From an uncultured Gemmatimonadales bacterium (GTDB lineage: Bacteria; Gemmatimonadota; Gemmatimonadetes; Gemmatimonadales; Gemmatimonadaceae): a stretch of DNA of 64,000 bases. The stretch is taken from assembly GCA_963793305.1 (NCBI GenBank), contig CAWBZV010000012.1, forward strand, positions 96,001 to 160,000, read 5' to 3'. This document shows positions 2,883-62,864 of the stretch, piece by piece. The notes under the pieces are model-generated. The model had not been told where the DNA came from and made no database searches. It saw only the letters and a list, made by a program, of their open reading frames with translations. The position numbers were made by a program, and so were the translations under genes. Position 1 is the first letter of the stretch. Each line of letters opens with the position of its first letter.

Positions 2883-3525
2883 CTAGCGTTTGGGCGGCGT
2901 GAAGATCGCCGTCATGATCCGCCGCCACAGATAGCCGCCCCAGAGACAGATGGGCATATAGATGACCCCCATCTGGACGAGCCCGAACACGAATCGCAGG
3001 CTCAGGATTTGGGCGACGGAGAACCCGCCGACCAGACGGATGCTCCCGTCGATGGTGAGAATCACCCCGAGCGCCAGCCCAAAGCGTTCGGGGCGCTTCA
3101 GCCGGACGATCGTGAAGACGAGAAATCCCACGCATGCGGCGTCGAGCGCCACGAGCAGAAGCCGCTGAAGAGCTGTCGGCGGCGCCGGCGCGGGCCAGGC
3201 GATCCAACTCCACGCCGCGAGCCCGGCGCCGCCGGCAATCGAAGCGAGCGCGAGCAGCCACGGAAACCACCACGCGCTGCCGCTTCCGCGGTTCCTCGAC
3301 GACCGGCGCCGATACCTGCCCGCTGGCCCGCCGAATCCACGCCGGCGCGAACACCATCGCGGCAATACCGAGCGCGGCCATGAGGGTCAGCAGTACCAGC
3401 GCCGGGACGGGGCCGAGCAGGTGCGTGCGCCACGCATGGTAGACGGCGTACCCATAGAGATCGAACACCAGGCACGCGCCGACGAACGTCGCCACCCGGC
3501 GGCCAAACGGGGTCACGGTTTCCAC
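2883..3525 (-). CDS. hypothetical multi-pass membrane protein; probable frameshift near 3280
   Basis: Hydrophobic helices in the N-terminal part of ORF 2626..3525 continue as hydrophobic helices in ORF 2883..3365. Confidence 0.5.
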
Positions 3526-41485: not shown

Positions 41486-41701
41486 ATGCGAGAGATCACC
41501 CTACGAATCGGCGGCATGAGCTGCAGTCATTGCCAGCAGGCGGTACGGGGCGCGCTGGCGGGCATCCCGAGTGTCGAGGTCGACACCGTCACCATCGGCT
41601 CGGCCACCGTGCGGCTCGACCCGGCCAAGACGAGCGTTGACCGGCTCGTCGCGGCGATCGATGACGTTGGCTACGAAGTGTTGGAACCCGTACCGTGGTG
41701 A
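41486..41701 (+). CDS. copZ: copper chaperone (HMA domain)
   Basis: [18 protein letters not shown]; 71 aa, directly upstream of a P1B ATPase. Confidence 0.9.
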
Positions 41702-43777
41702 CAGTGACGTTTCCGGTCTCCGGGATGACGTGCGCGGCCTGCTCGGCGCGCGTCGAGCGCGCGCTCGTGCGCGAGCACGGCGTCGATACGGCCCACGTCA
41801 ATCTGCTCCTGGAGAACGCGACCGTCGAGTACGACCCCGCGAGCACGGACCCGAAGCGATTGCTCGACGCCGTCCGGAAGACCGGCTACGGCGCCGCGCT
41901 GCCGGTCGACGACCAGGCGGCGGTCACGCGCAAGGCCGCCGTCAGCCTTGTGCTTGCGGCGGCCGCCATGCTGATCCATTGGCGCCCCGGCTTACTGGCG
42001 ATGGCGCTCATTACCATGCTCTGGGCCGGACGCGACATCTACGTGCGCGCCTGGGGCGCGGCACGGCATGGATCAGCGGACATGAACACGCTGATCGCCA
42101 TCGGGACCGGCGCGGCCTTGTTGTATTCGCTGTTTGGCCCCGAGGTGTACTACGAGGCCGTCATCGTCATCATCGCGTTCGTGCTCACGGGGAACGCCAT
42201 CGAGGCGCGGGCGAAAGCACGGACGACCTCGGCCCTCCGGGCACTGGCCGACCTGGCGCCGAAGACCGCCCGCATCCTCCGCGGCGCGGAGGCGGTCGAT
42301 GTGCCCATCGACGAGGTACGCTCCGGGGATATCATCCTCGTTCGGCCCGGTGAGCGAATGCCGGTCGATGGCGAGATCGTGAGCGGGCAGACCGCGGTCG
42401 ACGAGTCGATGATGACGGGTGAGTCGATCCCGGTGTCGAAAGCAACCGGCGATCGTGTCATCGGCGGTACGGTGAACGGCACGGGAGCCGTCCGGTACCG
42501 GGCGTCAACACTGGGCACCGACAGCGTGCTCGCGCGCATCATTGCGCTCGTCAAGTCCGCGCAGGCGAGCCGCGCACCCATGCAGCGGCTGGCCGATCGC
42601 GTCAGCGCCATCTTCGTGCCGACCGTCATCGGCATCGCGCTGGTCACGTTCATCATCTGGGCGTTGGTCGGCCCAATGACCCACGCATTGACGGCGGCCG
42701 TCGCCGTCTTGATCATCGCCTGTCCCTGCGCCATGGGGCTCGCGGTGCCGGCGGCCATGATGGTCTCGACCGGGCGCGGCGCCGAGCTCGGCGTGCTAAT
42801 CAAAGGCGGCGAGGCGCTTCAGCGCGCGGCGGACGTTCGACACGGTGGTCTTCGACAAGACCGGGACGATTACGGCCGGCCAGATCACCGTCACCGACAT
42901 CATCGGCCTCGATGCCACATCGCTCGCCCTCGCTGCCTCTCTCGAGTCAGCGAGCGAGCATCCATTGGCAGCCGCGATCGTTCAGCATAGCGCTACGCTC
43001 AATGGCGCCGGGCTTCGCCTCGGCATACCAACCGAGTTCGCTTCACGCACCGGTCGCGGCGTGATCGGGAACGTTGACGGCCATCTCGTCGCGGTCGGCA
43101 ACGCGGCGATGATGGCCGAATACGCCGGACATGAGGACGATAGCGCGTTCGCGCGAAGCGCGGCGCGCTATGCGGCCGAGGGAAAGACCGTGGTGTATGT
43201 CGCGATCGATGGCGCGATGGCCGGCCTGATCGCGGTTACCGACCCGGTGAAGTCGACGGCGAAAGAAGCCGTGGCGGAGTTACGGGGGCTCGGGGCTGAG
43301 GTCGTGTTATTGACCGGAGATACCGAGTCGACCGCACGAGCCGTAGCCGGGGATGTCGGAATAGATCGGGTGATCGCCGGCGTGCTGCCAGAGGGCAAAG
43401 TGCAGGCGATCGAATCGCTGCAGGCCCAGGGCCGCATCGTCGCGATGGTGGGCGACGGAATCAACGATGCCCCGGCGCTGGCCCGCGCGGACGTTGGCGT
43501 AGCGATGGGCACCGGCACCGATGTCGCCGCCGACGCGGCGGATGTCGTGCTGATGCGCGGCGACCCGCGGGCCGTGGCGCAGGCTATACGGCTCGCCCGC
43601 GCGACCATGCGCGTGATGAAGCAGAACTTGTTCTGGGCATTCGTCTACAACGCCATCGGCATCCCCATCGCCGCGAGCGGCTTGCTCAACCCCATGCTGG
43701 CCAGCGCGGCGATGGCGGCCAGCTCGATCAGCGTGGTCTCCAACAGCCTGCGGCTCCGCCGCGTGAGGGTCGACTGA
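41695..43777 (+). CDS. copA: Cu(I)-translocating P1B-type ATPase; frameshift near 42836
   Basis: [46 protein letters not shown] and MAASS TM ligands. Confidence 0.93.
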
Positions 43778-46291: not shown

Positions 46292-47655
46292 TGTATTTCC
46301 AACGTTTCTTCGAACCCAAGCTCGCCAGTGCGACCTATCTCGTCGGCTGCCAGAAGTCCGGTGAGGCCATCGTCATCGACGCCAACCGCGACATTGATCA
46401 ATACGTCGACGCCGCGGCCGCCGTCGGGCTCACCATCGCGTATACGACCGAAACCCACATTCATGCCGACTTCGTCTCCGGCACTCGCGCGCTCGCGGCC
46501 CGCACTGGAGCGCAGGTCCTCCTGCCACTGGCCGACGGTGAGCGCATCATGCTGGGGAACGTCCGACTGGACGTCGTGCACACGCCTGGTCATACGCCGG
46601 AGCACGTGATCTTTATCGTGACAGATGCTGGCGCCTCCCGGCCATGGGGCGTGCTGACGGGAGATTTTGTGTTCGTGGGCGATGTGGGCCGGCCTGATCT
46701 TCTCGAGCGAGCAGTCAAAGTTCAGGGAACAGCCGAGAGCAGCGCGCGGGACCTGTTTGCGTCATTGCAACGGTTCCGGGAGCTACCGGCTGACCTGCAG
46801 ATCTGGCCTGGACACGGCGCCGGATCAGCCTGCGGCAAAGCCCTGGGCGCGATGCCATCGACGACACTTGGCTACGAGCTCGCCACCAATTGGGCGCTCA
46901 AGGTCAGCGATGAAGCGACGTTTGTGCGCGAGGTCCTGAAGGGCCAGCCGGAGCCACCGCGCTATTTCGCGATCATGAAGCGCGTCAATCGCGTCGGAGC
47001 CGACCGCGAATCGACCGTCGCACGTCCACCGCGGATGCCCGATGCCGCGCTTGGCCCTTTGCTCGATGCGAACGCCACAATCGTCGATCTGCGCCGCGCG
47101 GATGCCTTTGCGGCCGCGCACGTCCCAGGCACGATCAACATCCCCCTCACGCGCTCGTTCCCGACGTGGGCAGGCTCGGTGCTCGCCTATGACGCCGACG
47201 TTTATCTGATCGGCGACGACGAGCGCGCGACGATCGAGGCCACGCACGACCTCTCGCTCATCGGCCTCGATCGGGTCGCCGGCCGATGGACGCGCCAGGT
47301 GATCGACCGCTGGCGCGAAGCCGGCGGGGCGATCGGCACGGTTGCGCAGGTTGACGCGCGCACGCTCGCCGACGCGCAGCGCACGGGCACCGTCGCCGTC
47401 CTCGATGTCCGGGACGAGAGCGAGTGGGACGAAGGCCATCTCGCCGAGGCGATCCACCTGCCGCTCGCGACGCTGGCATCGCGGCTCGGCGACATTCCGC
47501 GCGGCCGACCGATCGTCGTCCACTGCCAGGCTGGGTCACGCTCGGCGATCGCCGCGAGTCTCTTGACCGCGTCCGGGATTCCGGACGTGCGCAACCTGAC
47601 CGGCGGCATCGCCGCGTGGCCTGGCCCCCTAGTGCACGGCCGGAGCGATACCTGA
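46291..47655 (+). CDS. MBL-fold persulfide dioxygenase with tandem rhodanese domains (CstB-like)
   Basis: ETHIHADFVSG, TPGHTPEH, TGDFVFVGDVGRPDL, PGHGAGSACG, VHCQAGSRS. Confidence 0.9.
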   Translation: MYFQRFFEPKLASATYLVGCQKSGEAIVIDANRDIDQYVDAAAAVGLTIAYTTETHIHADFVSGTRALAARTGAQVLLPLADGERIMLGNVRLDVVHTPGHTPEHVIFIVTDAGASRPWGVLTGDFVFVGDVGRPDLLERAVKVQGTAESSARDLFASLQRFRELPADLQIWPGHGAGSACGKALGAMPSTTLGYELATNWALKVSDEATFVREVLKGQPEPPRYFAIMKRVNRVGADRESTVARPPRMPDAALGPLLDANATIVDLRRADAFAAAHVPGTINIPLTRSFPTWAGSVLAYDADVYLIGDDERATIEATHDLSLIGLDRVAGRWTRQVIDRWREAGGAIGTVAQVDARTLADAQRTGTVAVLDVRDESEWDEGHLAEAIHLPLATLASRLGDIPRGRPIVVHCQAGSRSAIAASLLTASGIPDVRNLTGGIAAWPGPLVHGRSDT

Positions 47656-48696
47656 CGCGATGAGATCGAGGACGGCGATCGCTTCGTCGTCCGAGGTCTC
47701 CGGTGCGTCGAGGGACGAGGTCGCGACGACGACGAGTTGTTGATCAGGGACGATATAGATGTATTGCCCCCGGAATCCCCAGGCCAACCATACCGTGTGA
47801 CCCTGGACGTTCGTCAGCCACCACAGATAACCATAGTTCAGGCCAGTGACCACTCCGTACTGGTTCTCGATCGCCTGGTGCACTTTGAGCGACGTGTTGA
47901 GCCAATCGGACGGGACAATTTGCGCTCCCGCGGTCTGGCCATTCTGAAGCACGAGCTGGCCGATCTTCGCCAAGTCTCGCGTGCGGAGTTGGAGCCCAGC
48001 GGCGGCGTTATTGTAGCCGCGGTTGTCCGTCTCCCACGCCAGCGTGTTGATGCCGAGCGGCCCCAATAGGTGCGTGAGCGCGTACTCCTGCTCGGTTACG
48101 CCAGTGGCTACACTCAGCCCCACGCCGAGCAAATGGACCGCAGCCGAGTTGTACGTGTATGTCGTGCCTGGCGTGTTCACAATCGGCCGACCCAGGAGAT
48201 AGTCGATCTGGTCCGGCGCGAGCGCCCAGAGGTTATAGTCGTTGGCGGTCCATTCATTCCACTGCCACCCACCGGTCATGGTCAGCAAGTTGTCGACCGT
48301 AATCGCGGCCTCGTCGGATCGCATCGTCGCGATGCGTGGCGGAACGAGTTGGTCGAGGCGCTCGGATACGCCGGGAAGGTCACCACGATTGATCGCGATG
48401 CCAACGAGCATTGATGTGATGCTCTTCGTGACCGAGCGAACGTCGCTCAGGCTATCCACCGTCACTGGCGAGTGATAGTACTCGGCGATCAGAAAACCGT
48501 TTCTCGCCACGAGCAGCGTGCGAAGACCGAGGGTGTTCGGCGCCTGCGCGAAGGCGCCGGCTAGCGCGGCGCTGTCGATGTGCTGGGATGAGGCGGAAGC
48601 GGTACGCCAGCCGCCCGTGAGATCGATGGGCGCGGGGCGCGGCGCCGTTGCGTCGCTACAGGCGCCGAGCAGTGCGACGAACGCGCAGGGAGACAC
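47629..48696 (-). CDS. serine hydrolase, beta-lactamase class C/NylB-like lipoprotein; start uncertain (48696 or 48741)
   Basis: LGAC lipobox, RSVTKS (SxxK), LLTMTGG, YTYNS, YGYLWW, AWGFRGQ. Confidence 0.88.
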   Translation of the reverse strand: MSPCAFVALLGACSDATAPRPAPIDLTGGWRTASASSQHIDSAALAGAFAQAPNTLGLRTLLVARNGFLIAEYYHSPVTVDSLSDVRSVTKSITSMLVGIAINRGDLPGVSERLDQLVPPRIATMRSDEAAITVDNLLTMTGGWQWNEWTANDYNLWALAPDQIDYLLGRPIVNTPGTTYTYNSAAVHLLGVGLSVATGVTEQEYALTHLLGPLGINTLAWETDNRGYNNAAAGLQLRTRDLAKIGQLVLQNGQTAGAQIVPSDWLNTSLKVHQAIENQYGVVTGLNYGYLWWLTNVQGHTVWLAWGFRGQYIYIVPDQQLVVVATSSLDAPETSDDEAIAVLDLIASGIAPAVH

Positions 48697-51457
48697 CCAG
48701 CACGATCGCAACGACCAGGATGACGAGCGAGATGGAGACATGGCGCGCTCTCGGAGGTATTGCGGCGATTCGAACGGTCGGATCGCCGACCACGGTGAAC
48801 GCTGCCCACTCGCTCGGCCGCGCGCCAGAGGCCCGGCGCTCGAGTTTGGCGGCGTGGAGTGCATCGGCCACCGGGAGCCCACGGGCGAGGCCTGAATAGA
48901 ACGCCCGGATGAACGGCACGGTCGTCTCGTCCCTGATGCGCCATTCGGTGGCGATCACGCTTCTGGCGCCGGCTTCCAGAAAAGGCGCGGTAAGCCCCTG
49001 CACGCCCTCGCCATCGACCACGACGCCGCCGGCCGAACGACAGGCCGAGAGCACGATCAGGTCCGCGTGGAGTCGGAGGTCCGCGACATCGGACGGCGTC
49101 ACGATGCCAGACTCGCCGCCGCCCGGCGAGAGCACGAGCGCGGTCCGATCGGCGCTCCGGTCATCCACAATCGCGTGCGTCGCGAAATGCAACACGGTGA
49201 ACGAGTCGAGTGGCGTGTGCTCCAGATAGGCAGCGCTCGCCGAGTCGCCGAGGCGCACGGTGGCGATCCTCGCGAAGCTCGCGGCCATTCGCGCCTCCTG
49301 GCCCGACTCGCGAAGCCGTGGCAAGCCGGTCGCGACAACCGCCGAACGGTACACGGCTGCTGCACTCGAATGTGAGAACGCGGGATCACCGAACGCGAGG
49401 ACTCGCAGGGCGCGGCTCGCCTCGGACCTCCGTCGGAGAGCCAAGAGTACGCCCGCCGAGGGAACGACACTGACAATCGCGCGTTCGACAAGCACATGGC
49501 CGTCAGTGCCGATCAACGCATCGAACGGGAGCCGGTGCAATGGACCATCTGGCACGATGATGATTCGCGGCGCCGCGACGTGGATCAACTCGGCGCCGAG
49601 CGCTCGGGCCAGGTCGCGCGGATCCTGGCCTGCTTCCAGCAGCGCGACAAACCTGGCGATGGGCGCGGCGAGCGAATCTGCGCTTGGGGCGCCGTAAGCC
49701 CGAATGGTGTCCCTGCTTACGACAAATACCGTAGTCGGCGCGCCCCGGGCTCCAGTCACGAACTCGACGAGAACCGTATTCGAATCCAAGAGGGCCGCCA
49801 CCTTGTCGAGGGTAACGCTGTACGCGGTCGCCGCAGGCGCCGCGTGATTCGCGCCCAGTGCCGACAGCTCTTCGATGCGATCGGCCAGGTCGCGGGCCCG
49901 CCGGCGTTCGGCCAGCGCAAATGCCGACGGTGCCATGCCGCCCAGCGCCAACGCGTGGATGACCGTCGCAATGTGCATGTCGCGATCATTCACCTCCTGC
50001 GGCCCGGCCTGAAACACGAGCAGCCGGAGATCGCGATCCGTCAGCGTCGCTCGCCACGCGACGATCTCGTCCTCCGCCGCCGCGAGCTCGCGCTCGGCGT
50101 CGCCGAGTCGGCTGGCGGCCACATAAGCTTCCGCGCGAAGCACGCGGCCCTCGTACCGCATCATGTGCTCCGACGTATCGCGCGTCGCGATATACCGGTC
50201 GAGCAACGCCACGGCCCGCGCCGGCTGACTGTCGGCGAGCGCGATCAATGCCCGCTCGCGGTCGACGCCGACCGCCCACTCCGGATGTCGGTCAGCCTTC
50301 GCCAATACCACCGCGGAATCGAGATCGCGAGTCGCTTGGGCCTTCGCGCCAGCGCGGAGATCGATCGACGCGAGCCCGCGCTCGAAGTCGAAGACTTGTG
50401 ACGTGTCGCCGAGCTTGGTATTGAATGCGGCTTCGCCCTCATAGATCGTGCGGGCCCGACGGAGATCGCCGGCGGCAGTCGCCAGGTCCCCCTCATAGGC
50501 GAGGACCGTGTGCACGTTGCCGGAGTCGCCGATCGCGCGGTATGTCGCGAGCGCGGTGTCGAGGTACGTGGCCGCCGATGGGTAGTCGTTGAGCTCGAGC
50601 GCCGCGATCCCAAGCACGGTCGACGCGCCCGCGATCACCAGGCCGTTGCCCGAGGCGAGTCCCTCGAACCGGGCGGCCACCGCCCATTTGCGCATTGTCC
50701 CGACGTCCCCGTTCTCGTGATAGATCTCGGAGTGCCGGATCATCGTCACGCCCAGCTCGGAGCGATCATGCGCGGCCCGCTGCAGCTCCTCGACGCGCTC
50801 GAGCGTGCGCTCGTTCGAGTCGGGGTCAGCGCCGATCTTGTACACGAGCGCCAACGCGCGCCACGCCCGCGCTTCGGCCCGCGGCAAGTGCGCCGCACGC
50901 GCGAGGTCTACCGCCCGCCGAGTCAGCGCTCGGGCGTCTCTGCGGCTCAGGATCGCCGCCAATGTCGCGCGGCGAAACGCGACCTCGGCTCGGAGATCCA
51001 TCTCGCCAGGGGGCAACAGTCGCTCGGCCGAGTCCAAGAGCGTAAAGCCGACCGGGATTCCCTCGGCCGCCGCACGCATCATCGAGAGGCCAACGAGCGC
51101 CTCGGCTTTCGCTAGCGGATCATGCGCCGCGCCGCGCTCCGCGCGCGCGAACGCCGACTCGGCTACCGGTACGATGTCGCGGTCTACCCCCTCCCAGCCG
51201 CGCCCAAGATCGGCGTACACTCCGCCAAGCGCCGCGTAGAGGCTATCGGCCAGGGCATAGTGGTACGTCAGGCGAGCGATCGTCGCGAGCCCAAGCGTAG
51301 CGGCGGGGCCTTGCCAGCGAGCCGCAACCTGGGACGCGCTGTCCCCTTCGACAGCCTGAACGGCAGCGCGGACGACGCCGCGCGGGTCGGCGAGCTGGAC
51401 GAGCAGAGCCAGGCAAGCGGTCACCGCCATGAGCGCTAACGTAATGCGCCCTATCAC
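48656..51457 (-). CDS. TPR-CHAT (caspase-like clan CD) protease with signal peptide and C-terminal TM anchor
   Basis: Helical repeat N-terminal region, IVPDGPLHRLPFDAL, LHFATHA (His), VLSACRS (Cys), GEGVQGL, WAAFTVVG, then ISLVILVVAIVLGVSLRVRR. Confidence 0.9.
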   Translation of the reverse strand: MIGRITLALMAVTACLALLVQLADPRGVVRAAVQAVEGDSASQVAARWQGPAATLGLATIARLTYHYALADSLYAALGGVYADLGRGWEGVDRDIVPVAESAFARAERGAAHDPLAKAEALVGLSMMRAAAEGIPVGFTLLDSAERLLPPGEMDLRAEVAFRRATLAAILSRRDARALTRRAVDLARAAHLPRAEARAWRALALVYKIGADPDSNERTLERVEELQRAAHDRSELGVTMIRHSEIYHENGDVGTMRKWAVAARFEGLASGNGLVIAGASTVLGIAALELNDYPSAATYLDTALATYRAIGDSGNVHTVLAYEGDLATAAGDLRRARTIYEGEAAFNTKLGDTSQVFDFERGLASIDLRAGAKAQATRDLDSAVVLAKADRHPEWAVGVDRERALIALADSQPARAVALLDRYIATRDTSEHMMRYEGRVLRAEAYVAASRLGDAERELAAAEDEIVAWRATLTDRDLRLLVFQAGPQEVNDRDMHIATVIHALALGGMAPSAFALAERRRARDLADRIEELSALGANHAAPAATAYSVTLDKVAALLDSNTVLVEFVTGARGAPTTVFVVSRDTIRAYGAPSADSLAAPIARFVALLEAGQDPRDLARALGAELIHVAAPRIIIVPDGPLHRLPFDALIGTDGHVLVERAIVSVVPSAGVLLALRRRSEASRALRVLAFGDPAFSHSSAAAVYRSAVVATGLPRLRESGQEARMAASFARIATVRLGDSASAAYLEHTPLDSFTVLHFATHAIVDDRSADRTALVLSPGGGESGIVTPSDVADLRLHADLIVLSACRSAGGVVVDGEGVQGLTAPFLEAGARSVIATEWRIRDETTVPFIRAFYSGLARGLPVADALHAAKLERRASGARPSEWAAFTVVGDPTVRIAAIPPRARHVSISLVILVVAIVLGVSLRVRRTARRL

Positions 51458-51492
51458 CCATACGCCCCTACCACTTGTATACTGCTATTCAC

Positions 51493-52017
51493 GTGGCCGA
51501 TCCTCTCTCGCGGGCGCTCGACGACGTGGTGTCACGTGCCGCCGCCGCTGTTCGGCAAGCGGGGTGGCGGTTCGGTCTCTCTCCGGATGAGGTCGACGAG
51601 GTCTTTCAGGACGTCCGCATCCGCCTCTGGAACGCCCGAGGCAGTGAGCAGATTTCCGAGACCAGCACGTCGTATGTGTACAAGACAGCGGCAAGCGCGG
51701 CGCTGGATTTGATACGCAGGCGTCGCGGAGGACTGCCGACGGATTCCCTCGACGTGGTGGATGCGCCCGCTCCGGCGCATGATCCGGAGCAGTCGCTCGC
51801 GGCGATGGAGTTGGGACGTGCCGTCAATGCCGCGGTCGACACCATCCCGGTGACCCGCCGCCCGGTGGTGCGCATGTATCTGATGGGCTACCCGCGGGAG
51901 GAGATCGCTGCGCTTATGGGATGGACCGAGGCCAAAACACGCAATCTTCTCTATCGCGGCCTGGCCGACCTGCGCCAAGCCCTGACCGCCCGCGGCATTG
52001 GGCCGCGTACCGCATGA
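51493..52017 (+). CDS. ECF RNA polymerase sigma factor
   Basis: DEVFQDVRIRLW, YVYKTAASAALDLIRR, GYPREEIAALMGWTEAKTRNLLYRG. Confidence 0.9.
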   Translation: MADPLSRALDDVVSRAAAAVRQAGWRFGLSPDEVDEVFQDVRIRLWNARGSEQISETSTSYVYKTAASAALDLIRRRRGGLPTDSLDVVDAPAPAHDPEQSLAAMELGRAVNAAVDTIPVTRRPVVRMYLMGYPREEIAALMGWTEAKTRNLLYRGLADLRQALTARGIGPRTA

Positions 52018-52613
52018 CCGACATGACCGACTCCGAGCTGCGCGATATCTACACGCGCTCCCTCACCTCGCGCGCGCCATCGCGCGCTACATGCCCATCG
52101 CCCGAAGCGATCGAAGCGCTCGTCGCCGGGACCGGCAGCGAAGCATCGCGGCTGACGACGCTCGACCACGTGATGTCGTGCGCGGCCTGCACTCAGGAGT
52201 TCGAGCTCCTGCGCGCGATTCACGCGGCCGAGCGCGTCAATGCGGGCGTCGCTCGGCCTCGCCGCTCGATAGCGCCTTGGCTCGCCGCGGCGGTCGTCGT
52301 GATCGCGGCCGGTGCACTGACGCTCACGCAGCTCCAGCGTTCGGGCTCGAACCCCACGCGCGGCGCATCGTCGGCCGACATCGCACTCGTCGGGGCGGTC
52401 AGTGGGTCGCTTGTCTGGCACGCGATTCCCGACGCGGTACGGTATAACGTCGAGATCGTCGACGCGTCGGGCGCGACCATCTTTCATGCTCGCGTTGCCG
52501 ACACCACGACGGCGATACCAGGGACGTTGCCGAATGCTCCGGTCAGCTGGTGGGTCCGAGCGACACTGCGTGACGGCAGCGAGCGTCGCTCGGCGATTAT
52601 CCCACTCCGCTAA
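52014..52613 (+). CDS. zinc-finger (ZAS/zf-HC2) membrane anti-sigma factor
   Basis: CPSPE...DHVMSCAAC (HxxxCxxC), TM helix WLAAAVVVIAAGALTL, beta-rich extracytoplasmic domain. ATGA overlap with the sigma gene. Confidence 0.82.
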   Translation: MTDMTDSELRDIYTRSLTSRAPSRATCPSPEAIEALVAGTGSEASRLTTLDHVMSCAACTQEFELLRAIHAAERVNAGVARPRRSIAPWLAAAVVVIAAGALTLTQLQRSGSNPTRGASSADIALVGAVSGSLVWHAIPDAVRYNVEIVDASGATIFHARVADTTTAIPGTLPNAPVSWWVRATLRDGSERRSAIIPLR

Positions 52614-53194
52614 AAGAGGCCGACGGCGAGTCCGAACGTTACGGGGACGACGTTGATCTGCTTCGCGCTCTTAATGAAGCCACCGTCCTTCGTGTAGACG
52701 TTCTGGACGCGGCCTTCCGCGAACGCGCTCACTCGGCCGACGACGATGGCCAGCCCCGCGCCCGCATCAATACCAAAATTAATCTTCGAGGCGGTCGACG
52801 CGGTCGAGGTGTCAGTTACCCCACGAATATCGAACGCACCAACGCCCGCGGTGAGATAGGGACGGACCGGCCCGTGAAGCAGATTGATCTGCAAGCCGCC
52901 GACGCCACTCAGGATCTCGCGGGTGCCAGGCGTCGTGGTCAGCGCGGACTGATTGTTGTAGTCGAACTTTTGATATCCGAAGTTGAACCGCAGCGCGAGA
53001 AATCCGGGCAGCTGGACGAGCGCGTAGGCTTGTCCGTTGATTCCGGTCTTGACGGTGTTGCCGCCATTGCCGGTGGGGATCGTTGCTCCGCCACCGACGC
53101 CGAGACTCAGGATGTAGTTGTTCTGGAGCTGTTGTTGTGCGGCGCCACGAGTGGCACAGAGGATCGTGGCGCCAACGAGCAGTAGCCGGCGCAT
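52610..53194 (-). CDS. small outer-membrane beta-barrel protein
   Basis: Signal peptide, alternating strands, VRPYLTAGVG, FGIDAGAG, C-terminal F. Confidence 0.8.
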   Translation of the reverse strand: MRRLLLVGATILCATRGAAQQQLQNNYILSLGVGGGATIPTGNGGNTVKTGINGQAYALVQLPGFLALRFNFGYQKFDYNNQSALTTTPGTREILSGVGGLQINLLHGPVRPYLTAGVGAFDIRGVTDTSTASTASKINFGIDAGAGLAIVVGRVSAFAEGRVQNVYTKDGGFIKSAKQINVVPVTFGLAVGLF

Positions 53195-53233
53195 GAGAGG
53201 TCTCCTTGGTTGTCTTGGAAACGTCTCATGCGC
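53189..53233 (-). promoter_or_regulatory. mRNA hairpin covering the SD and start codon of the beta-barrel gene
   Basis: GCGCATGAGA-C-GTTTCC / 11-nt loop / GGAGAC-C-TCTCATGCGC: 16 pairs (one G-U) and one mismatch. Confidence 0.5.
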
Positions 53234-53243
53234 GTTACGATTC

Positions 53244-54777
53244 TCACCGCTGCTGCAGCATCTTCACCGCGGCGTACGCGTTCACGATGCCGCCGGTTCG
53301 CGACAACGACCCGAACGCCACCTTCTCGCCGTTGGCGGCGCCCGGTCGCACGACCTGCTGGCTCGTGTAGCGCGTGGCGGATTCGAGGATGATGCGCTTG
53401 AGATCCGCCGCGGTGAGGTCGGGATAGTAGGATAGCAAGAACGCCGCGAGCCCCGTCACCACCGGGGAGGCCATGCTCGTGCCGCTGTCTTTCTCGTACT
53501 TATCGCCGGGCACCGTCGAAAGAATGTCGACGCCAGGCGCGAAGACGTCGACTTGGTCGCGCCCATAGTTGCTGAATGAGGCCGCGAGCGTGTCGCCGCC
53601 TTGCCATGACGAGGCGCCGACCTCGATCCAGTTTCGCGCGTGCCCGCTATCGGCATACGCGGGCGTCGGGAAGTTCGGGTACGAGGTCAAGTCCTTCCCG
53701 TCGTTCCCCGCGGCGTGCACCATGAGGACGTTGTGCGCGTCGGCGTATCGCACCGCCTCGTCGACCGCGAACTTCTCGGGCGAGTACCCTTTGCCGAAGC
53801 TCATGTTGATCACGCGCGCGCCGTGATCGACCGCGAACCGGATCGCGTTCGCGATATCCTTGTCGCGCTCGTCGCCGTCCGGTACCGCGCGGACCATCAT
53901 GATGCGCACGGCCGATGAGTCGATGCTATGGACGATACCCGAGACGTGGGAACCGTGCTTCGCATCGGGACCCATGACGTTCGAGTTCCCGTAGTTCGAC
54001 TGGTGCACATCGGCATAGTTGTCGCCGACGATCGAGCGGGGGTCGTAGTCGGTATTGAGCTCGTAGTCGAGCCGCGCCTGGATCTCGCTCAGCGCATCGG
54101 CGATGACCTCTGGCGTCGCGCCCCGTTGCATCAGCACGAGATAGAGCTGCTTCGAGCGGGCGGTCGCGCTGTCGGTCGGGTCGAGCGCTTTGACGCTCTC
54201 TTGGGTGAGCGGGGCGGAGCCGAGTGCGCTGTGGAGCACGGCGGTCGCCCGCTCGAGCGCCTGCGGAGACGTCGCGAATCCGCTCGACCTGCTGCGCGGC
54301 GTCCGCCCGGCGCTTGGTGAGGTCTGCGTCCATTGACGCGCACTGCGCCGCGTACTGCGCGGGTATCGTGTGCTTGCGGCATCGGACGACGAGTCGTGTC
54401 TGCTCGTACGTGTCCCAGTGGACATCGCGGCCGTCCGGGCCACCTTGATAATCCCAACCGAACCGGAGGTTGTCGCCCATCCAGAGAATGGGCCGGAGGT
54501 CCTTGTGCGCGGTATCGACGCCGCCGTCGATGACCGCCACGAGCACAGTCTTTGGTGTCTTCCCCACCAGCAATTCGCGGCGCGCCTTGCCGACGCTGAT
54601 TCCCGGCACATGATCGGCCGACTCATCCATCAGCTGCCAGCCGTCGGGCGCCGAGGTGAGACCCGATGCGGGTGCGACACTCGGCGCCGGCGTGGCGGAC
54701 GGAGCGGGCGTGACGGGAGCGGCAGACGGCCGACAGGCCGCCGCGATCAGAATGACCAGCAGAAATCGACGGGGCAT
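53244..54777 (-). CDS. S8 subtilisin-like serine peptidase lipoprotein; frameshift near 54265
   Basis: IAAAC lipobox, VAVIDGGVD, HGSHVSG, HAAGND, ASFSNYG, SGTSMASP. Confidence 0.9.
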
Positions 54778-54802: not shown

Positions 54803-56323
54803 TTAGGGGCAGCTCAACACGATGTGCCCTCCTCGCCCGTCGATCTCGGTTTCCTCGATCGGCAGCACGGTCGTGTGGAAGTCCGTCGGCGCGGTGCCCG
54901 TGCTCGTTTTCACGCTGGCGACGCCCGCCGCATCCGGACCCGAGGTCGCTTGCCACGTCGTGTCGGCGACTGCCGCCATGCCGTACATGCGAATCGAGAT
55001 CATCCGGTCGCCGCTGGCTTCGATCGCGGTCGAGATGCGCTGCTCTTTGAGGAGCGCGTTTCTCACGTCGAGGTAATCCGCCGGCACGGTCAGCGGCGTC
55101 GCGTATCCGCCGGCCTGTTGATGGACCATGTTGATGAGATTCATGGCGTTGCCGTACGCGCCCAGGCCGAGCTGAATCTGTGCGTCGATCAACGTCAGCT
55201 CCTCGTTGCGCACGATCGGTATGGGCGTCGAGACCGACGGGTAATAGTTATAGATATACGGCGAGGCGACCGGCGCGAACGTCGCCTGTTGGACCGCATT
55301 CGGATTGACGGCGAACTTGGCCTTCCAGCGCAAGTCGTTGGCGGTATCCACATCGGCGACCAAATCCCACAGGACGGCAGATGTGCCGATGATGCCGTTG
55401 ACGAAATTGGTCAGGTCGCCGGACTGCGCGCTGAAAACGTGGTAGACGCCGTAGGCGTCGTTCGTCGAAAATCCGCCAGGGGTCGGCGACGTGATGGCCG
55501 AAGGGTTGAACAGCGCCGATGCTTTGAGCGCACTGTCTGCCCGGGTGAGCGCCGCGACATCCGGTGTGCCCGCCGTGTTCGGCGTCGGCCCGGCACCATT
55601 CTGACGCGCGATCGCGTACGCCAGCTGCAGTCCCGCCTTTCCGGCCAACGCGCGGTTGAACGCGGCGAACGCACCGCCCGTGGTGCTCGGACCCGCGCTC
55701 AAGCCCACCGCACCGAATCCGCTGGGCAGTGCAATGGGAAGCGAGATGGCGCCCGCGGTATTCAAATCCCCGTTCGCCGAATCCAACAACGCGACGATGT
55801 ACTGCCAGACATCCCGGTTGCAGTAGATCGCCTGCGGTGACGACGCACCGGCCGAGTACAGTGAGACGCCCACGGTGTCGTGCGTCTCGGCGATCATCAT
55901 GAACTGCAGGGCTTTGATCGTCCGCACGACGCCGCGGATCGCCGACGCCTGCGCGCTGGGGTACGCGGGTGCGACATTCGGGATCGACGCGAGGATTTCG
56001 TTGGCGAGCTTGATGTTGCCGTACTCCTGATCCCACTCCCACTGCGACCAGAAGAAGTCGTTGAACGCGATCGGTGTCAGTCCGAGACCTTCGGTGATCC
56101 ACCGCGGCTCGGTGTTGGTGAAGTTCCCCGCATCGCGCCCGAACGCGCTCGAGGCGAAGATATAGTTCCCGACATCGATCCGGGCGGCGAAGAAGAGCCC
56201 GGTCACGACGTTCTGTATGCCCGTCGGCGTGTTGGCGACCGAAGTCGGGCCCGAGAGGTCGGGCACGTTCGTGTCTTTGCACGCGGCCAGCACGGCGAGC
56301 AGGAGAAGGAAGCGGCTCCTCAT
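54803..56323 (-). CDS. susD: RagB/SusD family lipoprotein
   Basis: LAAC lipobox, PIPIVRNEELTLIDAQ, LLKEQRIS...GDRMISIRMYG; follows susC. Confidence 0.85.
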   Translation of the reverse strand: MRSRFLLLLAVLAACKDTNVPDLSGPTSVANTPTGIQNVVTGLFFAARIDVGNYIFASSAFGRDAGNFTNTEPRWITEGLGLTPIAFNDFFWSQWEWDQEYGNIKLANEILASIPNVAPAYPSAQASAIRGVVRTIKALQFMMIAETHDTVGVSLYSAGASSPQAIYCNRDVWQYIVALLDSANGDLNTAGAISLPIALPSGFGAVGLSAGPSTTGGAFAAFNRALAGKAGLQLAYAIARQNGAGPTPNTAGTPDVAALTRADSALKASALFNPSAITSPTPGGFSTNDAYGVYHVFSAQSGDLTNFVNGIIGTSAVLWDLVADVDTANDLRWKAKFAVNPNAVQQATFAPVASPYIYNYYPSVSTPIPIVRNEELTLIDAQIQLGLGAYGNAMNLINMVHQQAGGYATPLTVPADYLDVRNALLKEQRISTAIEASGDRMISIRMYGMAAVADTTWQATSGPDAAGVASVKTSTGTAPTDFHTTVLPIEETEIDGRGGHIVLSCP

Positions 56324-56325
56324 GG

Positions 56326-59300
56326 TTAGAATCCCAGATCGAGGGAGATGAAATAGCTGCGCGCCGGCGGGTACGGGGTGACATCTTGGCCGCGCTGCAC
56401 TTGTTGGTTGCCGACGAAGTTCACCTCGGGATCGAGCCCGGTGTACTTGGTCCACATGAGCAGGTTGCGACCGGTGAGCGAAATCGTGGCGTTGCGCAAC
56501 CAGCCGCGCGACAGCCCGACGAGCTGCGACGGCAGCTGATAGCTCAACGTGAGCTCGCGCAGCTTGAGGTAGCCGGCCGGTTCGGCGTATGGGGTGAGAC
56601 CGTTGTTGGCCGCGATCGTGCGGCGCGCGCTCAAGGCCGTGTCGGCCAAGGTGCCGGGGCTTATGTCGAAGAGGTTATCGGTAAAGTTGCCCGCCAGTCC
56701 GCCATAGCTCCATTCGAGCACGCCCGAGGCGTGAAGCGGGCCCCAGGAGAATTGGTTCGAGAAGTTCATCACGAAGTTCGGCTGTGCATCGCCGACCTGG
56801 ATCGGCTGACCATCCGGGCCGTTGGAGTTGCCGACGATCTGCGTGACCGAGCGTCCGACCTGAACCCGGTACGTCCCGAGCGATCCCCCACCGCCGTTGT
56901 TCAGGATGAAGGCCGGCACCGGCAGCGAGTTCACCACGCTGTAGTTCCGGTAGAAGCTGGTCGTCGTGATCCATTGGAAGCCGTTCTTGAACTGGATCGG
57001 CGTCGCGGTGAGCAGGAGCTCGATGCCCTGGTTGGTGAACTCGCCGCCGTTGATCCATTGCTCGTTGCCCCCGAGTGACGGCGAGATCGCATCCTGCAAC
57101 AGCAGGTCGGTCAACCGCTTCTGGTAGATCGTGGCGCTGAATTGGGCGCGCGAATTCAAGAACGTCGCATCGAACCCGAGCTCTTCTTCGACCTCCCGCT
57201 CCGGCCGCACCACGGAATCGCCGAGGACGAGATTCTCGTACGCACCAATGGCTCCACTCGAGACGCCGATATTGAACGGCGTGTACTTCACGAGATAGTT
57301 CGGCTGCGTGCCGGACTGACCGTACGCCGCGCGGACCTTGAGCTCGTTCAAAAATCCGACGAACTGCGGAATGCGATAGGAGCCGGAGAACCGCGTGTAC
57401 GGGTAGAACTTGCCGATGTCTCCGTCGTTGGTGGTCCGCTCGGCCGTCACGCCAGCGGTCAACGCCAGGCGCTCGCCGAGTGTCAGAACCTGTTCCTGGA
57501 CGTACAGCGATTGGTCCTTCGCTTCGGTCGCGTTGTCTTGCAGCGTCTGCACGGCGCCGAGTTGCGGGTTGTTCGCGCCGGCGAGCAACGCTTGCCCGGC
57601 GGTCAACGGGTTGTCCAGGCTGCGGATCTCGCGTACGAATCCGAACGAGGTCGTGGCGTCCAGGAATGACAGCCCGGTGTAGTGGTGGATCAGGTTGAGC
57701 GAGTAGTTGTAGTACGTCGTCCGACCGAATTGATCCTGGGCGACGCCCGGGAGTCCCGAGGGAATCCTTTGCTCGACCTGCAGATCCGGCGGCGCGTAGA
57801 ACTTGTCGCTCTGCGTGGTCAGGTCCGCGCCACCCTGGAACTCGAGCCGCACGCTTTGGCTCGACGACCGATAGGGCGTCCAGTCGACGTTGCCGCCGCC
57901 GATGAACCGGTTCACCTCTTCTGGCGTCTGAATCTCCCAGGCGTCCGCGAACGGATTCGCCGGACCGTACGGATTCGTGGGCCACGCCAGGTTGCTCTGG
58001 CGGTCGAGCAACACGAACTGCGGTGTGTAGGAGAATACGTCGTATGGACTGATGCCGATATTATCGTTGCCGGTCACCCCGCGCCGGGTCGTCGAGTTCG
58101 CGTACGTCAGGTTCGCCGTCACCGACAGGTTGTCGGACACGTGCTGCGTGACGTTCGAGCGAACGGTCTGCTTGTTGTATCCGGTGTTGAGCTGAATGCC
58201 GTTGTCGTATTTCGTCAGTCCGGACAGGAAGTACTGCGTCTTCCCTGACGTGCCGCTGACGCTCAGATCCGTCTCGTAGGACGCTTGCGGGTTGCCGAAC
58301 AGCTGATCCTGATAGTCCTGCGGTCCGGCGTAGTACTTCCGGACCGTATCCGTCGACTGACCGTACGTGTTGGCCCAATTGAGCGCCGACTGGAGGGTCG
58401 GGAATTGGGTGAGATCGTACGTATTCGCGAGCTCGAAGTGACCGAGCCTCTGGGAGAAATTCCACTGCGGTTTACCCGGCGCGCCTTTCTTCGTCGTGAT
58501 CACCACGACGCCGGATGAGGCCTTCGAGCCATAGATCGCCGAGGCGCTCGCGCCTTTGAGGATCTCGATGCTCTCGATGTCGTCGGGATTGAGATCGGCG
58601 ATCCGGTTCGGGCTGTTGTCCTGGCTGTTGCTGCCGACGCCGCCATTCGCCTGGCTGATCGTGTTGAGTCCGCTGTTCAGCGTCTCGTTGTTCACCATGA
58701 CGCCGTCGACGACGTAGAGTGGATTCGAGTTCGCGTAGATCGACGTGACGCCGCGCACCTGGATCTGCATCCCGCCGCCCGGCGCGCCGCCGTTGTTCTG
58801 TTGGATGACCGCGCCCGGGACCTTGCCCTGGATGGCATTCTCGACCGTCGGCGCTGGAACCCTCGACACCTCATCGGCCGAGATGACCGTGACGGCGTTG
58901 GCCGAGTTCGCCGACGAGATGGTCGTCGCCACGCCCGTGACCACCTCGGCCTCGAGCTTGAGGACGTCCTTCGTCATCGTGATCGTGATATCGGTCTGAT
59001 CGCTCGCCAGCGAGTCGACGGCCTGGCGATAGCCGATGCGGCGCACGGTGACGCTCTTGGCGTTGTCCGGCAGTCGGAGCGCGAATGCGCCGCTGTCGTT
59101 GGTGAGCGTGCCGACATTCGTGCCGGTGACGAGCACCTGGGCATTGACGACCGGCTCTCGGGAGTCGGCGTCGAGCACCCGGCCCGTCAGGCGACGCGGC
59201 GGTGGCGGTTGCGGCGGACGGCGAATCAGTGCGATCTGGTCGCCGGGCAAGACCTCGACATCGACTTGGGTCTCGTGCAGCACCTCGGTGAGCGCGGCGA

Positions 59301-59580
59301 CGACGGAGATGCCGTCGGCTTCCAACGAGACCCGGGACTCGCTCGGGAGCTCGTTCGGGCTGTAGGCGATGTGCAGGCCGGCTTGGCTGGCGATCGCGTC
59401 GAGGACTTCCGGGATCGCGACATCCTGCAGATGGATGCTGACCCGTCGTCGCATCATGGCGACGTTGCGCGCGTCGACGCGTCGGCCGTCGGCGCGCATG
59501 AAGAAGAGCAAGGCCGATTGTTGGGCGTGGGCCAGGGACGGCAAGAACGACAGGGACAGAACGAACGACAGTCGACGCAT
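56326..59580 (-). CDS. susC: SusC/RagA TonB-dependent transducer with N-terminal STN signalling domain
   Basis: N-terminal RVSIHLQDVAIPEVLDAIASQAGLHIAYS (STN-like), DLNPDDIESIEILKGASASAIYGSKASSGVVVITTKKG, YTGLDPEV, C-terminal F. Confidence 0.93.
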   Translation of the reverse strand: MRRLSFVLSLSFLPSLAHAQQSALLFFMRADGRRVDARNVAMMRRRVSIHLQDVAIPEVLDAIASQAGLHIAYSPNELPSESRVSLEADGISVVAALTEVLHETQVDVEVLPGDQIALIRRPPQPPPPRRLTGRVLDADSREPVVNAQVLVTGTNVGTLTNDSGAFALRLPDNAKSVTVRRIGYRQAVDSLASDQTDITITMTKDVLKLEAEVVTGVATTISSANSANAVTVISADEVSRVPAPTVENAIQGKVPGAVIQQNNGGAPGGGMQIQVRGVTSIYANSNPLYVVDGVMVNNETLNSGLNTISQANGGVGSNSQDNSPNRIADLNPDDIESIEILKGASASAIYGSKASSGVVVITTKKGAPGKPQWNFSQRLGHFELANTYDLTQFPTLQSALNWANTYGQSTDTVRKYYAGPQDYQDQLFGNPQASYETDLSVSGTSGKTQYFLSGLTKYDNGIQLNTGYNKQTVRSNVTQHVSDNLSVTANLTYANSTTRRGVTGNDNIGISPYDVFSYTPQFVLLDRQSNLAWPTNPYGPANPFADAWEIQTPEEVNRFIGGGNVDWTPYRSSSQSVRLEFQGGADLTTQSDKFYAPPDLQVEQRIPSGLPGVAQDQFGRTTYYNYSLNLIHHYTGLSFLDATTSFGFVREIRSLDNPLTAGQALLAGANNPQLGAVQTLQDNATEAKDQSLYVQEQVLTLGERLALTAGVTAERTTNDGDIGKFYPYTRFSGSYRIPQFVGFLNELKVRAAYGQSGTQPNYLVKYTPFNIGVSSGAIGAYENLVLGDSVVRPEREVEEELGFDATFLNSRAQFSATIYQKRLTDLLLQDAISPSLGGNEQWINGGEFTNQGIELLLTATPIQFKNGFQWITTTSFYRNYSVVNSLPVPAFILNNGGGGSLGTYRVQVGRSVTQIVGNSNGPDGQPIQVGDAQPNFVMNFSNQFSWGPLHASGVLEWSYGGLAGNFTDNLFDISPGTLADTALSARRTIAANNGLTPYAEPAGYLKLRELTLSYQLPSQLVGLSRGWLRNATISLTGRNLLMWTKYTGLDPEVNFVGNQQVQRGQDVTPYPPARSYFISLDLGF

Positions 59581-60596
59581 TAGTGCTCCTTGGAACGTCG
59601 GACGAGGATCACCGTGCGCCCGCTCCAGCGAACGCGGGCGCCCAACGTGGCCGCGACGATGTGCAGGACCTCATCGACCGGCTCGTCGCGGAACGAGGCC
59701 GTGAGGGGGACCGCGGCGAGCGTGGAGTCGCCGAGTCGGAGGTCTACGTCGTACCAGCGCGCGAGTGCGCGGACGGCTTCGCGCGCCGGCGTGTTGTGCA
59801 GCTCGAGCCGACCGGTGGTCCACGCGCCAATGTTTTCGACTCCGCGATCAACGGCGGCCTCGCCCAATGGCGTCACCGTGGCCGCGTCGCCTCCGGCCAG
59901 CGCGATCGGCTGCGCGTTCGCTGCGCTGACGGCGACTTGTCCTTCGTCGACCGCAACGCGGACCGAGCTGTCTTCGGGATACGCGCGAACGTCGAACCGC
60001 GTGCCGAGATCCGTCGCGATGGCACGCCCGGCACGTACGACGAACGGCGCGCGCGCATCGTGGACCACGGTGAAGAACGCCTCACCATTGAGCGTCGCCG
60101 ATCGGCCATCCACCGTCAGCCGGCTCGCCGGGGCCAGCACGACTTGCGTGCCGTCATCGAGCCTGAGAGTCGCACGCTGGCCTCGCGCCGTCAGAAATAC
60201 ACGTGGCGCTTCGCGCCTACGCGACCGTGTGCCTGTTGCCAGGCCGAGACCGATCGCGATCACCAGTCCCGCGGCAATCGCGGCTAGTGGCCAACGCTCA
60301 GACCAACGACCCGGCCAACGATCAGCGGATCGCAACCGGACCGCCGGCGCTGATCGTCGGCGTCCCCAGCCAAGTCGCTGTTGAGCCCGGGCGAGGCTCG
60401 CGGCGGCATCGAAGTGCGGCTGCGCGAAGTGCGGCGCACTGAGTTGACGCGTCGCCACCGCGATGCGCGCGATCTGATCGAACAGCCGCCGGCGGTCGGG
60501 ATCGGAGCCGATCCATTGCTCGACGGCCGCGCGATCGGCGTCTGACCCCTTGCCGACCGCGACGCGCTCCAACAGGACCCAATCCGGCTCGCTCAC
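59580..60596 (-). CDS. fecR: FecR family anti-sigma factor
   Basis: TARGQRATLRLDDGTQVVLAPASRL, LNGEAFFTV, DLGTRFDV, AWTTGRL, LARWYDV. Confidence 0.9.
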   Translation of the reverse strand: MSEPDWVLLERVAVGKGSDADRAAVEQWIGSDPDRRRLFDQIARIAVATRQLSAPHFAQPHFDAAASLARAQQRLGWGRRRSAPAVRLRSADRWPGRWSERWPLAAIAAGLVIAIGLGLATGTRSRRREAPRVFLTARGQRATLRLDDGTQVVLAPASRLTVDGRSATLNGEAFFTVVHDARAPFVVRAGRAIATDLGTRFDVRAYPEDSSVRVAVDEGQVAVSAANAQPIALAGGDAATVTPLGEAAVDRGVENIGAWTTGRLELHNTPAREAVRALARWYDVDLRLGDSTLAAVPLTASFRDEPVDEVLHIVAATLGARVRWSGRTVILVRRSKEH

Positions 60597-60627
60597 GCCT
60601 CAACAACAACCAGCGGCGCCGAACCCC

Positions 60628-61233
60628 CTACATGTCAAATGCGATCAGCGCGGATCTCAATGCCTTGAGCCCGCGCGTCAGCAATGCCTCGACGCCTTTT
60701 TGCGTGATGCTCATGGCCTCGGCGATCTCGGGACACGTCAGGCCATACTTCCACCGCAGGACACAGGCATGGCGACACCGTGGCGCCAAGTCGGCGAGCG
60801 CTCGGGCCAGCGCGGAGTTGAAGTCGGCGGCTTCGGCGTGGTGCTCGGGCGTCGGGCCTAAGTCTTCCGCCGGAGACAACTCGGCGGCTCGCGCTTCGAC
60901 GCGTTGCCGTTTGAGATGGTTGAGCGCGCGATTTCTGGCCGCGCCAAACAGATAGCGCCGGACGCCGCCGTTCGTCGGACGCCACGTGGCGCGGCGCTCC
61001 CAGATCCGACATAACAGATCCTGGACAATATCCTCACCCTGCGCTGCGTTGCCGACGATCGTCGCGACGAATGCGCAGAGGGGGGCATAGAACGCGAGGT
61101 ACAGCGCGTCGAACGCCCGACTGTCACCCTGACGGATTCGCGTGACCCATTCATCCGTCGCGGGCTCCGCGAATTCCGTAGCGACCGGCGGAGGCGGTCG
61201 GTCGAGCAACCCCGGGTACATCACGACCGACAT
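60628..61233 (-). CDS. FecI-like ECF sigma factor (start 61233 or 61221)
   Basis: GDSRAFDALY, EDIVQDLLCRIW, YLFGAARNRALNHLK, GLTCPEIAEAMSITQKGVEALLTRGLK. Confidence 0.9.
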   Translation of the reverse strand: MSVVMYPGLLDRPPPPVATEFAEPATDEWVTRIRQGDSRAFDALYLAFYAPLCAFVATIVGNAAQGEDIVQDLLCRIWERRATWRPTNGGVRRYLFGAARNRALNHLKRQRVEARAAELSPAEDLGPTPEHHAEAADFNSALARALADLAPRCRHACVLRWKYGLTCPEIAEAMSITQKGVEALLTRGLKALRSALIAFDM

Positions 61234-61256
61234 GATTGTCGGGGTCGTGTGTTTTA

Positions 61257-62787: not shown

Positions 62788-62864
62788 ACGAGCACAGCTA
62801 TGCAAGAGCCGAACCCCAGGCCCCAAGGGGTGGTCCCAAGCGTCCTAAACCGTAGACTTTCGTC

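Follow-up and report, generated by a model that had tools for sequence, protein, structure and literature searches.

An ECF sigma factor module of Gemmatimonadota with a predicted exported TPR-CHAT protein as the candidate site-1 protease of its anti-sigma factor

The locus described here lies within a 64,000-nucleotide stretch of DNA (the window) on contig C12 of an uncultured Gemmatimonadales bacterium, the genome of which (G000) is 5.7 Mb in size and 92% complete. It consists of a gene for a TPR-CHAT protein and, head to head with it, two genes encoding an ECF sigma factor and its zinc anti-sigma factor (Table 1). No further member of the sigma factor's family was found in G000, and the closest relatives of the sigma factor (best 80 of 200) are titled Gemmatimonadaceae. 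The longest CHAT reading frame reaches position 51457 (48656-51457; 933 aa), and the residue numbers used below follow it. However, the frame upstream of the ATG at 51430 is shifted by one base in two relatives (L200 and L201), and hence this ATG is the likely start. The layout given in the initial annotation stands; the length of 933 aa and the intergenic gap of 35 bp claimed there are probably to be replaced by 924 aa and by 62 bp to the GTG of the sigma gene. The sigma and anti-sigma genes were rightly considered to be translationally coupled; the stop codon of the former overlaps the ATG of the latter (ATGA, 52014-52017).

Table 1. Positions of genes, domains, and sequence elements within the window.
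Feature	Position	Strand	Remarks
Beta-lactamase-fold lipoprotein (PF00144)	47629..48696	-	Overlaps CHAT end; a neighbour, module membership unsupported
TPR-CHAT protease, predicted exported	48656..51430	-	Likely start ATG 51430; 924 aa
C-terminal TM helix of CHAT protein, then Arg-rich tail	48686..48742	-	Residues 906-924; by hydropathy
CHAT domain	48782..49609	-	His761 at 49175-49177; Cys806 at 49040-49042
Invariant Asp843 and Glu721, within CHAT domain	48929-48931 (Asp843)	-	
Short hydrophobic, signal-peptide-like N-terminus of CHAT protein	51389..51430	-	By eye and hydropathy
TACGTT, possible -10 of CHAT gene	51438..51443	-	Leaderless type (inferred)
TATACT, -10-like element of sigma gene	51478..51483	+	Housekeeping, near-leaderless (inferred); 9 nt before sigma start
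ECF sigma factor	51493..52017	+	Start GTG 51493
Anti-sigma factor	52014..52613	+	199 aa; CHCC zinc domain, TM, linker, FN3-like ectodomain
Arg116 codon in anti-sigma linker	52359..52361	+	Predicted P1, NPTR/GASS
Secreted outer-membrane beta-barrel-type protein	52610..53194	-	Predicted output; homologue in L208 is OMP_b-brl
TGAGAA-N17-CGT, then AGGAGA ribosome-binding site	53221..53246	-	Predicted promoter of window sigma

Residues 617-892 of the reading frame at 48656-51457 (minus strand) match the CHAT family PF12770 (E 1e-57; 196 bits against a cut-off of 24), and the His/Cys dyad reported for it at the outset is indeed intact: His761 and Cys806 align with the dyads of DdvA and Csx29, and they are 45 positions apart, the same spacing as that of H862 and C907 in DdvA. 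A search of the PDB with the single sequence (P0001) gave no matches, and profiles were needed; the ESM Atlas returned only unnamed clusters, all below 0.9. The best Foldseek matches of an AlphaFold model of the domain (pLDDT 89.6) are Csx29 (E 6e-12), DdvA (3e-11), and separase; the modelled fold is caspase-like (clan CD), and the protein is a putative protease. The TPR match is weak in the window's own protein (E 0.006), with TPR families matching 29 of 44 aligned CHAT relatives scanned, and the TPR region of approximately 580 residues is conserved in the family. Cys806, Asp843, and Glu721 are present in all 124 CHAT proteins compared and the catalytic His in 101 of them; within the group of the window's protein, the non-tandem CHATs, all 70 members have retained the His, the Cys, and Asp843. 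Elsewhere in G000, an orphan TPR-CHAT gene, its product 40% identical and with no sigma gene nearby (C3:108569-111529), could act in trans on the window's anti-sigma factor, and C3:1138217-1143985 holds a second, distant TPR-CHAT/anti-sigma/ECF module with one intervening gene and an anti-sigma factor devoid of the zinc motif.

The anti-sigma factor is a single-pass zinc protein, as first described, with the ligands C27, H52, C56, and C59 and one TM at residues 86-104 (52269-52325). Loci L164-L170, all of one genus, place the same sigma family beside a soluble zinc anti-sigma factor of 81-88 aa that has no TM, with no adjacent CHAT gene, and a second sigma factor is paired with a short soluble zinc anti-sigma factor in both L072 and L089. 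The signal segment and the C-terminal TM that had been ascribed to the CHAT protein were both recognized by hydropathy. Signal-like or lipoprotein N-termini were likewise seen, by eye and hydropathy, in most CHAT relatives, and many CHATs of the tandem, His-containing clade carry a lipobox. The C-terminal TM with its basic tail, presumably an inner-membrane anchor that leaves the enzyme outside, is clade-specific, being present in 47 of 70 non-tandem CHATs vs. none of 54 tandem or fused ones. In four loci (L060, L102, L136, and L149), the anti-sigma zinc domain, TM, linker, FN3 domain, and TPR-CHAT region are encoded in one frame, from which we infer that the CHAT domain and the anti-sigma ectodomain reside on the same side of the membrane. 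Together with the N-termini, this would place the CHAT protein facing the periplasm.

Conservation of the three-gene neighbourhood, which the initial annotation had proposed as a check, was assessed with an anti-sigma profile search over 301 Gemmatimonadota genomes, from which the loci of 100 strong matches beyond those already in the comparison were fetched (the anti-sigma-selected set). Thirty-five zinc anti-sigma factors among the matches listed, in which only the N-terminal part was covered, served as controls, with 533 weaker matches lying outside that listing; a sigma-selected set was formed from the best 80 among 200 relatives of the sigma factor in the genome collection. One unpublished genome (G012) was among those searched; it was left out of the fetched loci, and no claim is built on its sequence. 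A search for representatives was swamped by surface proteins with FN3 repeats. A CHAT gene was found within about 6-7 kb in 88 of the 100 anti-sigma-selected loci and in none of the 35 controls. For the 72 sigma-selected loci that encode a full anti-sigma factor, the number is 57. These values are to be read with the understanding that the search profiles were seeded from CHAT-adjacent genes, that the two locus sets overlap, and that kin are not independent. Restricting the sets to loci with 4.5 kb or more on both sides gives 57/61, 34/38, and, for the controls, 0/23. At the level of genomes, 37 of the 301 contain the sigma family and 28 the CHAT TPR region, with 27 in common. Of the ten with sigma only, one has a CHAT missed at the threshold used, seven (one genus) encode an anti-sigma factor of 81-88 aa that lacks TM, linker, and ectodomain, and two have no anti-sigma of the family adjoining the sigma gene; where the locus itself lacks CHAT, a close CHAT was found at another place in the genome in all five cases tested. 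Hence, the sigma, anti-sigma, and CHAT genes are real genes conserved together across Gemmatimonadota. Their orientation varies (64 convergent, 51 tandem downstream, 3 tandem upstream, 3 divergent, and 3 fused among 124 loci), so that the head-to-head layout of the window, at 3/124, is rare. A Ser/Thr kinase considered as a further module component was rejected, given that it showed no clear enrichment (14/100 and 22/80 vs. 5/35 controls).

The linker between the TM and the FN3-like domain of the anti-sigma factor contains a single near-invariant residue. Arg116 is found in 170 of 172 full-length anti-sigma factors and, following de novo alignment, in 100 of 101 representatives below 50% identity, the linker being otherwise variable; in the same representatives, the zinc ligands are less conserved (87-90 of 101). 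The residue is positioned 8-23 residues after the TM (median, 14), and among the 101 representatives Asp or Glu occupies P4 in 47% and Gly P1' in 57%. The dipeptide RG occurs in 60/101 linkers compared to 31 in shuffles (maximum of 46 in 1000) and 5/28 controls, and when shuffled linkers of 60 sequences were realigned 12 times, the best Arg column held at most 31/60 as opposed to 60/60 in the real alignment. Cleavage after Arg has precedent in related enzymes: HetF cuts PatU3 between Arg117 and Ser118 (PMC9457339), and separase cuts after ExxR. Csx29 enzymes, on the other hand, cut after Met or Leu, and Arg specificity is thus not family-wide. In separase, the Asp that binds the P1 Arg is located eight residues after a Trp (D2151; human D2070, which is Cys+41), and this position maps to K670 of Csx29. 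It is not conserved as Asp in the 124 CHATs, where the Trp+8 column holds mainly Ala (57) and Val (39). The invariant Asp843 was considered as the equivalent of D2151 and rejected, as residue counting places it at Trp+4; it aligns with another Asp of separase and with one of DdvA, and the residue is Ser in one Csx29. With Ala or Val at Trp+8 and the invariant Asp at Trp+4, an acidic S1 pocket is at most putative. The conservation of Arg116 suggests that the CHAT protein likely cuts the anti-sigma factor after this residue.

Given the same-side topology, the co-occurrence, and the candidate cut site, we consider it reasonably probable, as the initial annotation had suggested and these features partly support, that the CHAT protein serves as the dedicated site-1 protease of the anti-sigma factor. 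Sigma and anti-sigma factor would be produced from a housekeeping-type promoter, to judge from the -10 elements: an element of this kind, 9 nt ahead of the sigma gene, is present in 60 of 79 sigma loci, where 2.8 would be expected (a generic scan for sigma-70 promoters and terminators performed at chance level). By analogy with DdvA, the CHCC domain would hold the sigma factor. The CHAT protein would then be activated by a signal from the envelope, with the TPRs or the FN3 ectodomain as the probable sensor, this being the weakest step of the scheme. Cleavage after Arg116 would remove the FN3 cap and leave approximately 12 residues outside the membrane, following which an RseP-type protease, as shown for truncated DdvA, would cleave the TM; G000 has M50 peptidases, one of them with the split match typical of RseP. 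The freed sigma factor is predicted to transcribe from GTGAGAA-N17-CGT promoters.

A different role for the same contact must be weighed, that the CHAT protein binds the linker Arg without cutting it and so shields the anti-sigma factor from another site-1 protease until a signal arrives, in the manner of the securin pseudosubstrate or an RseB-type guard. It is favoured by a group of enzymes, likewise a point against the site-1 protease reading, in which the catalytic His is lost while the Cys, the Asp, and the Arg of the partner are retained (23 of 124 CHATs, three of the fusions among them; loci L090, L092-L094, L097-L099, L102-L105, L108, L110, L111, L116, L119, L127, L128, L133, L136, L149, L156, and L163). 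These His-less enzymes form one sister clade that does not include the window's protein (SH-aLRT 93 in a quick tree of 74 rows, with the convergent clade subsampled to 18). The His motif is missing from all four fusions, a further point in favour of a non-cutting guard, as is the finding that the TPR-CHAT region of DdvA acts as a steric block against RseP. Conversely, the window's own clade has both His and Cys in 70/70. Moreover, L199 has suffered an internal CHAT deletion of approximately 2.5 kb, remnants of both ends persisting at 2920-3010 between the beta-lactamase and sigma genes, and yet it retains an intact sigma factor, anti-sigma factor, and linker Arg with no adjacent CHAT, although a CHAT paralogue remains elsewhere. 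The retention of the Arg in L199 counts against the site-1 protease reading as well.

The partners of the His-less enzymes provide another argument. With duplicates removed, a His directly precedes the linker Arg in 15 of 22 of them compared to 0 of 95 others, a contrast for which a P value is not meaningful because it reflects a single evolutionary event. This P2 His may rescue the His-less enzymes, and the pattern fits placement of the linker in the active site, possibly with substrate-assisted catalysis, a concept derived from engineered subtilisin; it also fits a non-cutting guard. A simulation study has argued that the His of clan CD enzymes does not transfer protons (PMC10088814), which likewise counts against a guard. 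On balance, a guard that binds without cutting appears unlikely. Extending the site-1 protease reading to the family, exported caspase-like proteases could be widespread private site-1 proteases, each devoted to one anti-sigma factor and one Arg site, with the anti-sigma factor supplying the P2 His in the His-less clade; this generalization is tentative, and we regard it as rather doubtful. If true, the P2 His would represent natural substrate-assisted catalysis that locks a protease to a single substrate.

The same sequence evidence also fits constitutive cleavage at Arg116 in which the fragments stay associated and a signal merely pulls off the FN3 cap. Self-cleaving anti-sigma factors with retained fragments are cited in PMC11506125, and the small size of the cap would suit a removable plug, but the long, conserved TPR region suggests that the enzyme is gated, and DdvA is stable at full length in cells; constitutive cleavage is accordingly judged improbable.

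The site-1 protease reading leads to the question of output. The motif (G)TGAGAA-N17-CGT was found by reading upstream of the genes flanking the sigma loci and, counted in the same loci in which it was first noticed, it has, at a spacing of 17, 58 sites spread over 42 of the 80 sigma loci, vs. 1-5 sites at each of ten other spacings between 12 and 22. For 42 of the 58 sites, a start is no more than 300 nt away, and the genes concerned are signal-like in 34 cases; seven sites are inside the sigma gene itself and nine elsewhere. Of 13 sites at controls, 11 are in six of the seven loci with short anti-sigma factors, which carry the same sigma family, and the motif thus tracks the sigma factor rather than CHAT. 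The single exact site of the window, just before the beta-barrel gene, is by itself at chance level (25/100 shuffles), but L199 and L200 share it, and homologues in L206, L208, L211, and L212 are likewise preceded by it. A copy with one mismatch is present within the sigma coding sequence (51645-51672, plus strand), where the motif is exact in seven sigma-selected loci; it may serve anti-sigma feedback or reflect mere codon constraint. Across G000, the 30 sites in total do not exceed those at other spacings, while 11 are intergenic and near a start compared to 1-3 at four other spacings. Among the genes following them, some doubtless by chance, are those for Hcp, a kinase, an S9 peptidase, and lipoproteins of the NHL, Bor, and carboxypeptidase-regulatory-like types. 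The exact motif lies approximately 55 nt before the type VI secretion Hcp gene (C5:985735-986296, minus strand), which may be chance, and another site (C3:100564) is 8 kb from the orphan CHAT gene. The output of the freed sigma factor is thus predicted to be mostly genes for secreted proteins and lipoproteins, including that at 52610-53194. As predicted output, this gene replaces the beta-lactamase-like gene earlier suggested, upstream of which no promoter motif was found; a search with the latter against 4191 neighbouring ORFs of 172 module loci identified it only in L199 and L200, and it is additionally beside the module in L006, all very close relatives.

That neighbours of the module mostly encode secreted proteins would also suit a CHAT protein that matures the cargo of a secreted regulon while a general protease cuts the anti-sigma factor, and an A[RK]-type motif in 6 of 14 downstream lipoproteins of the tandem, His-containing clade (0.8 expected) points the same way; yet with RG present in no more than 3 of the 41 N-termini of cargo predicted for the window's sigma family (11 expected), so that cleavage at RG is not supported there, with no motif preceding the window's CHAT gene, and with fusions that link CHAT to the anti-sigma factor and not to cargo, this role is very unlikely. 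For the tandem clade itself, CHAT-processed lipoproteins are possible. The tandem modules of L112, L113, L115, L129, L135, L144, L151, L152, and L158 adjoin an unnamed lipoprotein family in which A[RK]G/A often follows the lipobox.

Beyond the beta-barrel gene, an S8 subtilase gene (53244-54777, minus strand) is split over two frames and intact in L200. Similar apparent frame breaks affect a heavy-metal ATPase (41695-43777) and a PAS kinase that continues into an ECF sigma factor (60628-62826), and all three suggest indel errors of the assembly. Upstream of the subtilase, an ECF sigma factor, FecR, a TonB-dependent SusC-like receptor, and a SusD/RagB-like lipoprotein (54803-61200, minus strand) constitute an ordinary cell-surface signalling unit.

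Type III-E Csx29/Csx30, the model originally put forward for the module, shares with it a fold match and a TPR-CHAT protein set against a separate sigma inhibitor, there with CASP-sigma (PMC10028731). Unlike the window's protein, Csx29 is cytoplasmic, depends on Cas7-11 and RNA for its activation, and has its cut sites after Met or Leu (PMC10028731; the comparison with Craspase further rests on PMC9729208 and bioRxiv 2023.06.23.546230). The Csx29 profile NF041237 scores 12.6 on the window's CHAT against a cut-off of 300, no direct-repeat array was found within the window and no cas1 in the 92% complete genome, and among six local proteins the only matches to defence profiles were those of the CHAT and subtilase domains. 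HetF/PatU3 of Anabaena resembles the module as a CRISPR-free, membrane-bound CHAT with a dedicated substrate and one Arg cut. It differs in that the TPRs of HetF are periplasmic with a TM between them and the CHAT domain, and PatU3 is not described in the accessible portion of that account as a TM anti-sigma factor (PMC9457339); the profile NF045509 scores 12.4 against a cut-off of 1200. In ECF54, too, an ECF sigma factor has a CHAT/TPR neighbour that is conserved and not part of a CRISPR locus, but in the available text this group is restricted to Actinobacteria, has no anti-sigma factor, and recognizes GTATCAG/CTCC (PMC7826278), whereas the present module has an anti-sigma factor, another motif, and occurs in Gemmatimonadota. 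TGAGAA was not found in the examined part of the ECF group supplement.

The nearest known system is DdvA/DdvS of Myxococcus xanthus (PDB 8rot, 8rw5, and 8rlz), of which the module is a split form rather than an analogue of Craspase. They share an ECF sigma factor, one TM, a TPR-CHAT that is periplasmic (predicted for the module), a CHCC zinc domain (the anti-sigma profile matches 8rlz, E 0.002), and the proposed route of site-1 protease followed by RseP; 8rot is the best sequence match of the CHAT profile (E 2e-16). The CHAT of the window differs in being encoded apart from the anti-sigma factor (fused in four relatives), with a predicted signal peptide and C-terminal anchor of its own, and the anti-sigma factor in ending with a small FN3 domain and in its single near-invariant linker Arg. 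DdvA/DdvS controls a CBASS/CRISPR island; for the module no such island was found, with cas1 searched across the genome and repeat arrays and defence profiles searched locally, and its predicted targets are secreted proteins. DdvA-like fusions were reported only in Myxococcota and one Comamonas, in the accessible text of PMC11506125, the authors of which already hypothesized a site-1 protease role for CHAT. Cleavage by RseP was shown with truncated DdvA, whereas full-length DdvA is stable in cells, and dyad mutants behaved like wild type with no cleavage induced (PMC11506125; PMC6061681); with neither signal nor site known, the role could not be tested. The literature searched, mostly non-subscription, yielded no account of an exported, stand-alone CHAT that cuts a TM anti-sigma factor. 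New here are the near-invariant Arg116, the predicted promoter GTGAGAA-N17-CGT, and the His-less clade with its P2 His. Confirmation would place the anti-sigma factor among the few defined substrates known for caspase-like proteases of bacteria and would add a predicted regulon for a phylum that has received little study. The split form makes the unproven proposal for DdvA, that a CHAT domain serves an ECF switch as its site-1 protease, testable, offering a separate enzyme, a 199-aa substrate with one predicted scissile bond (Arg116-Gly117), a predicted reporter promoter, and natural variants in the soluble anti-sigma factor, the His-less enzyme, the fusions, and the deletion.
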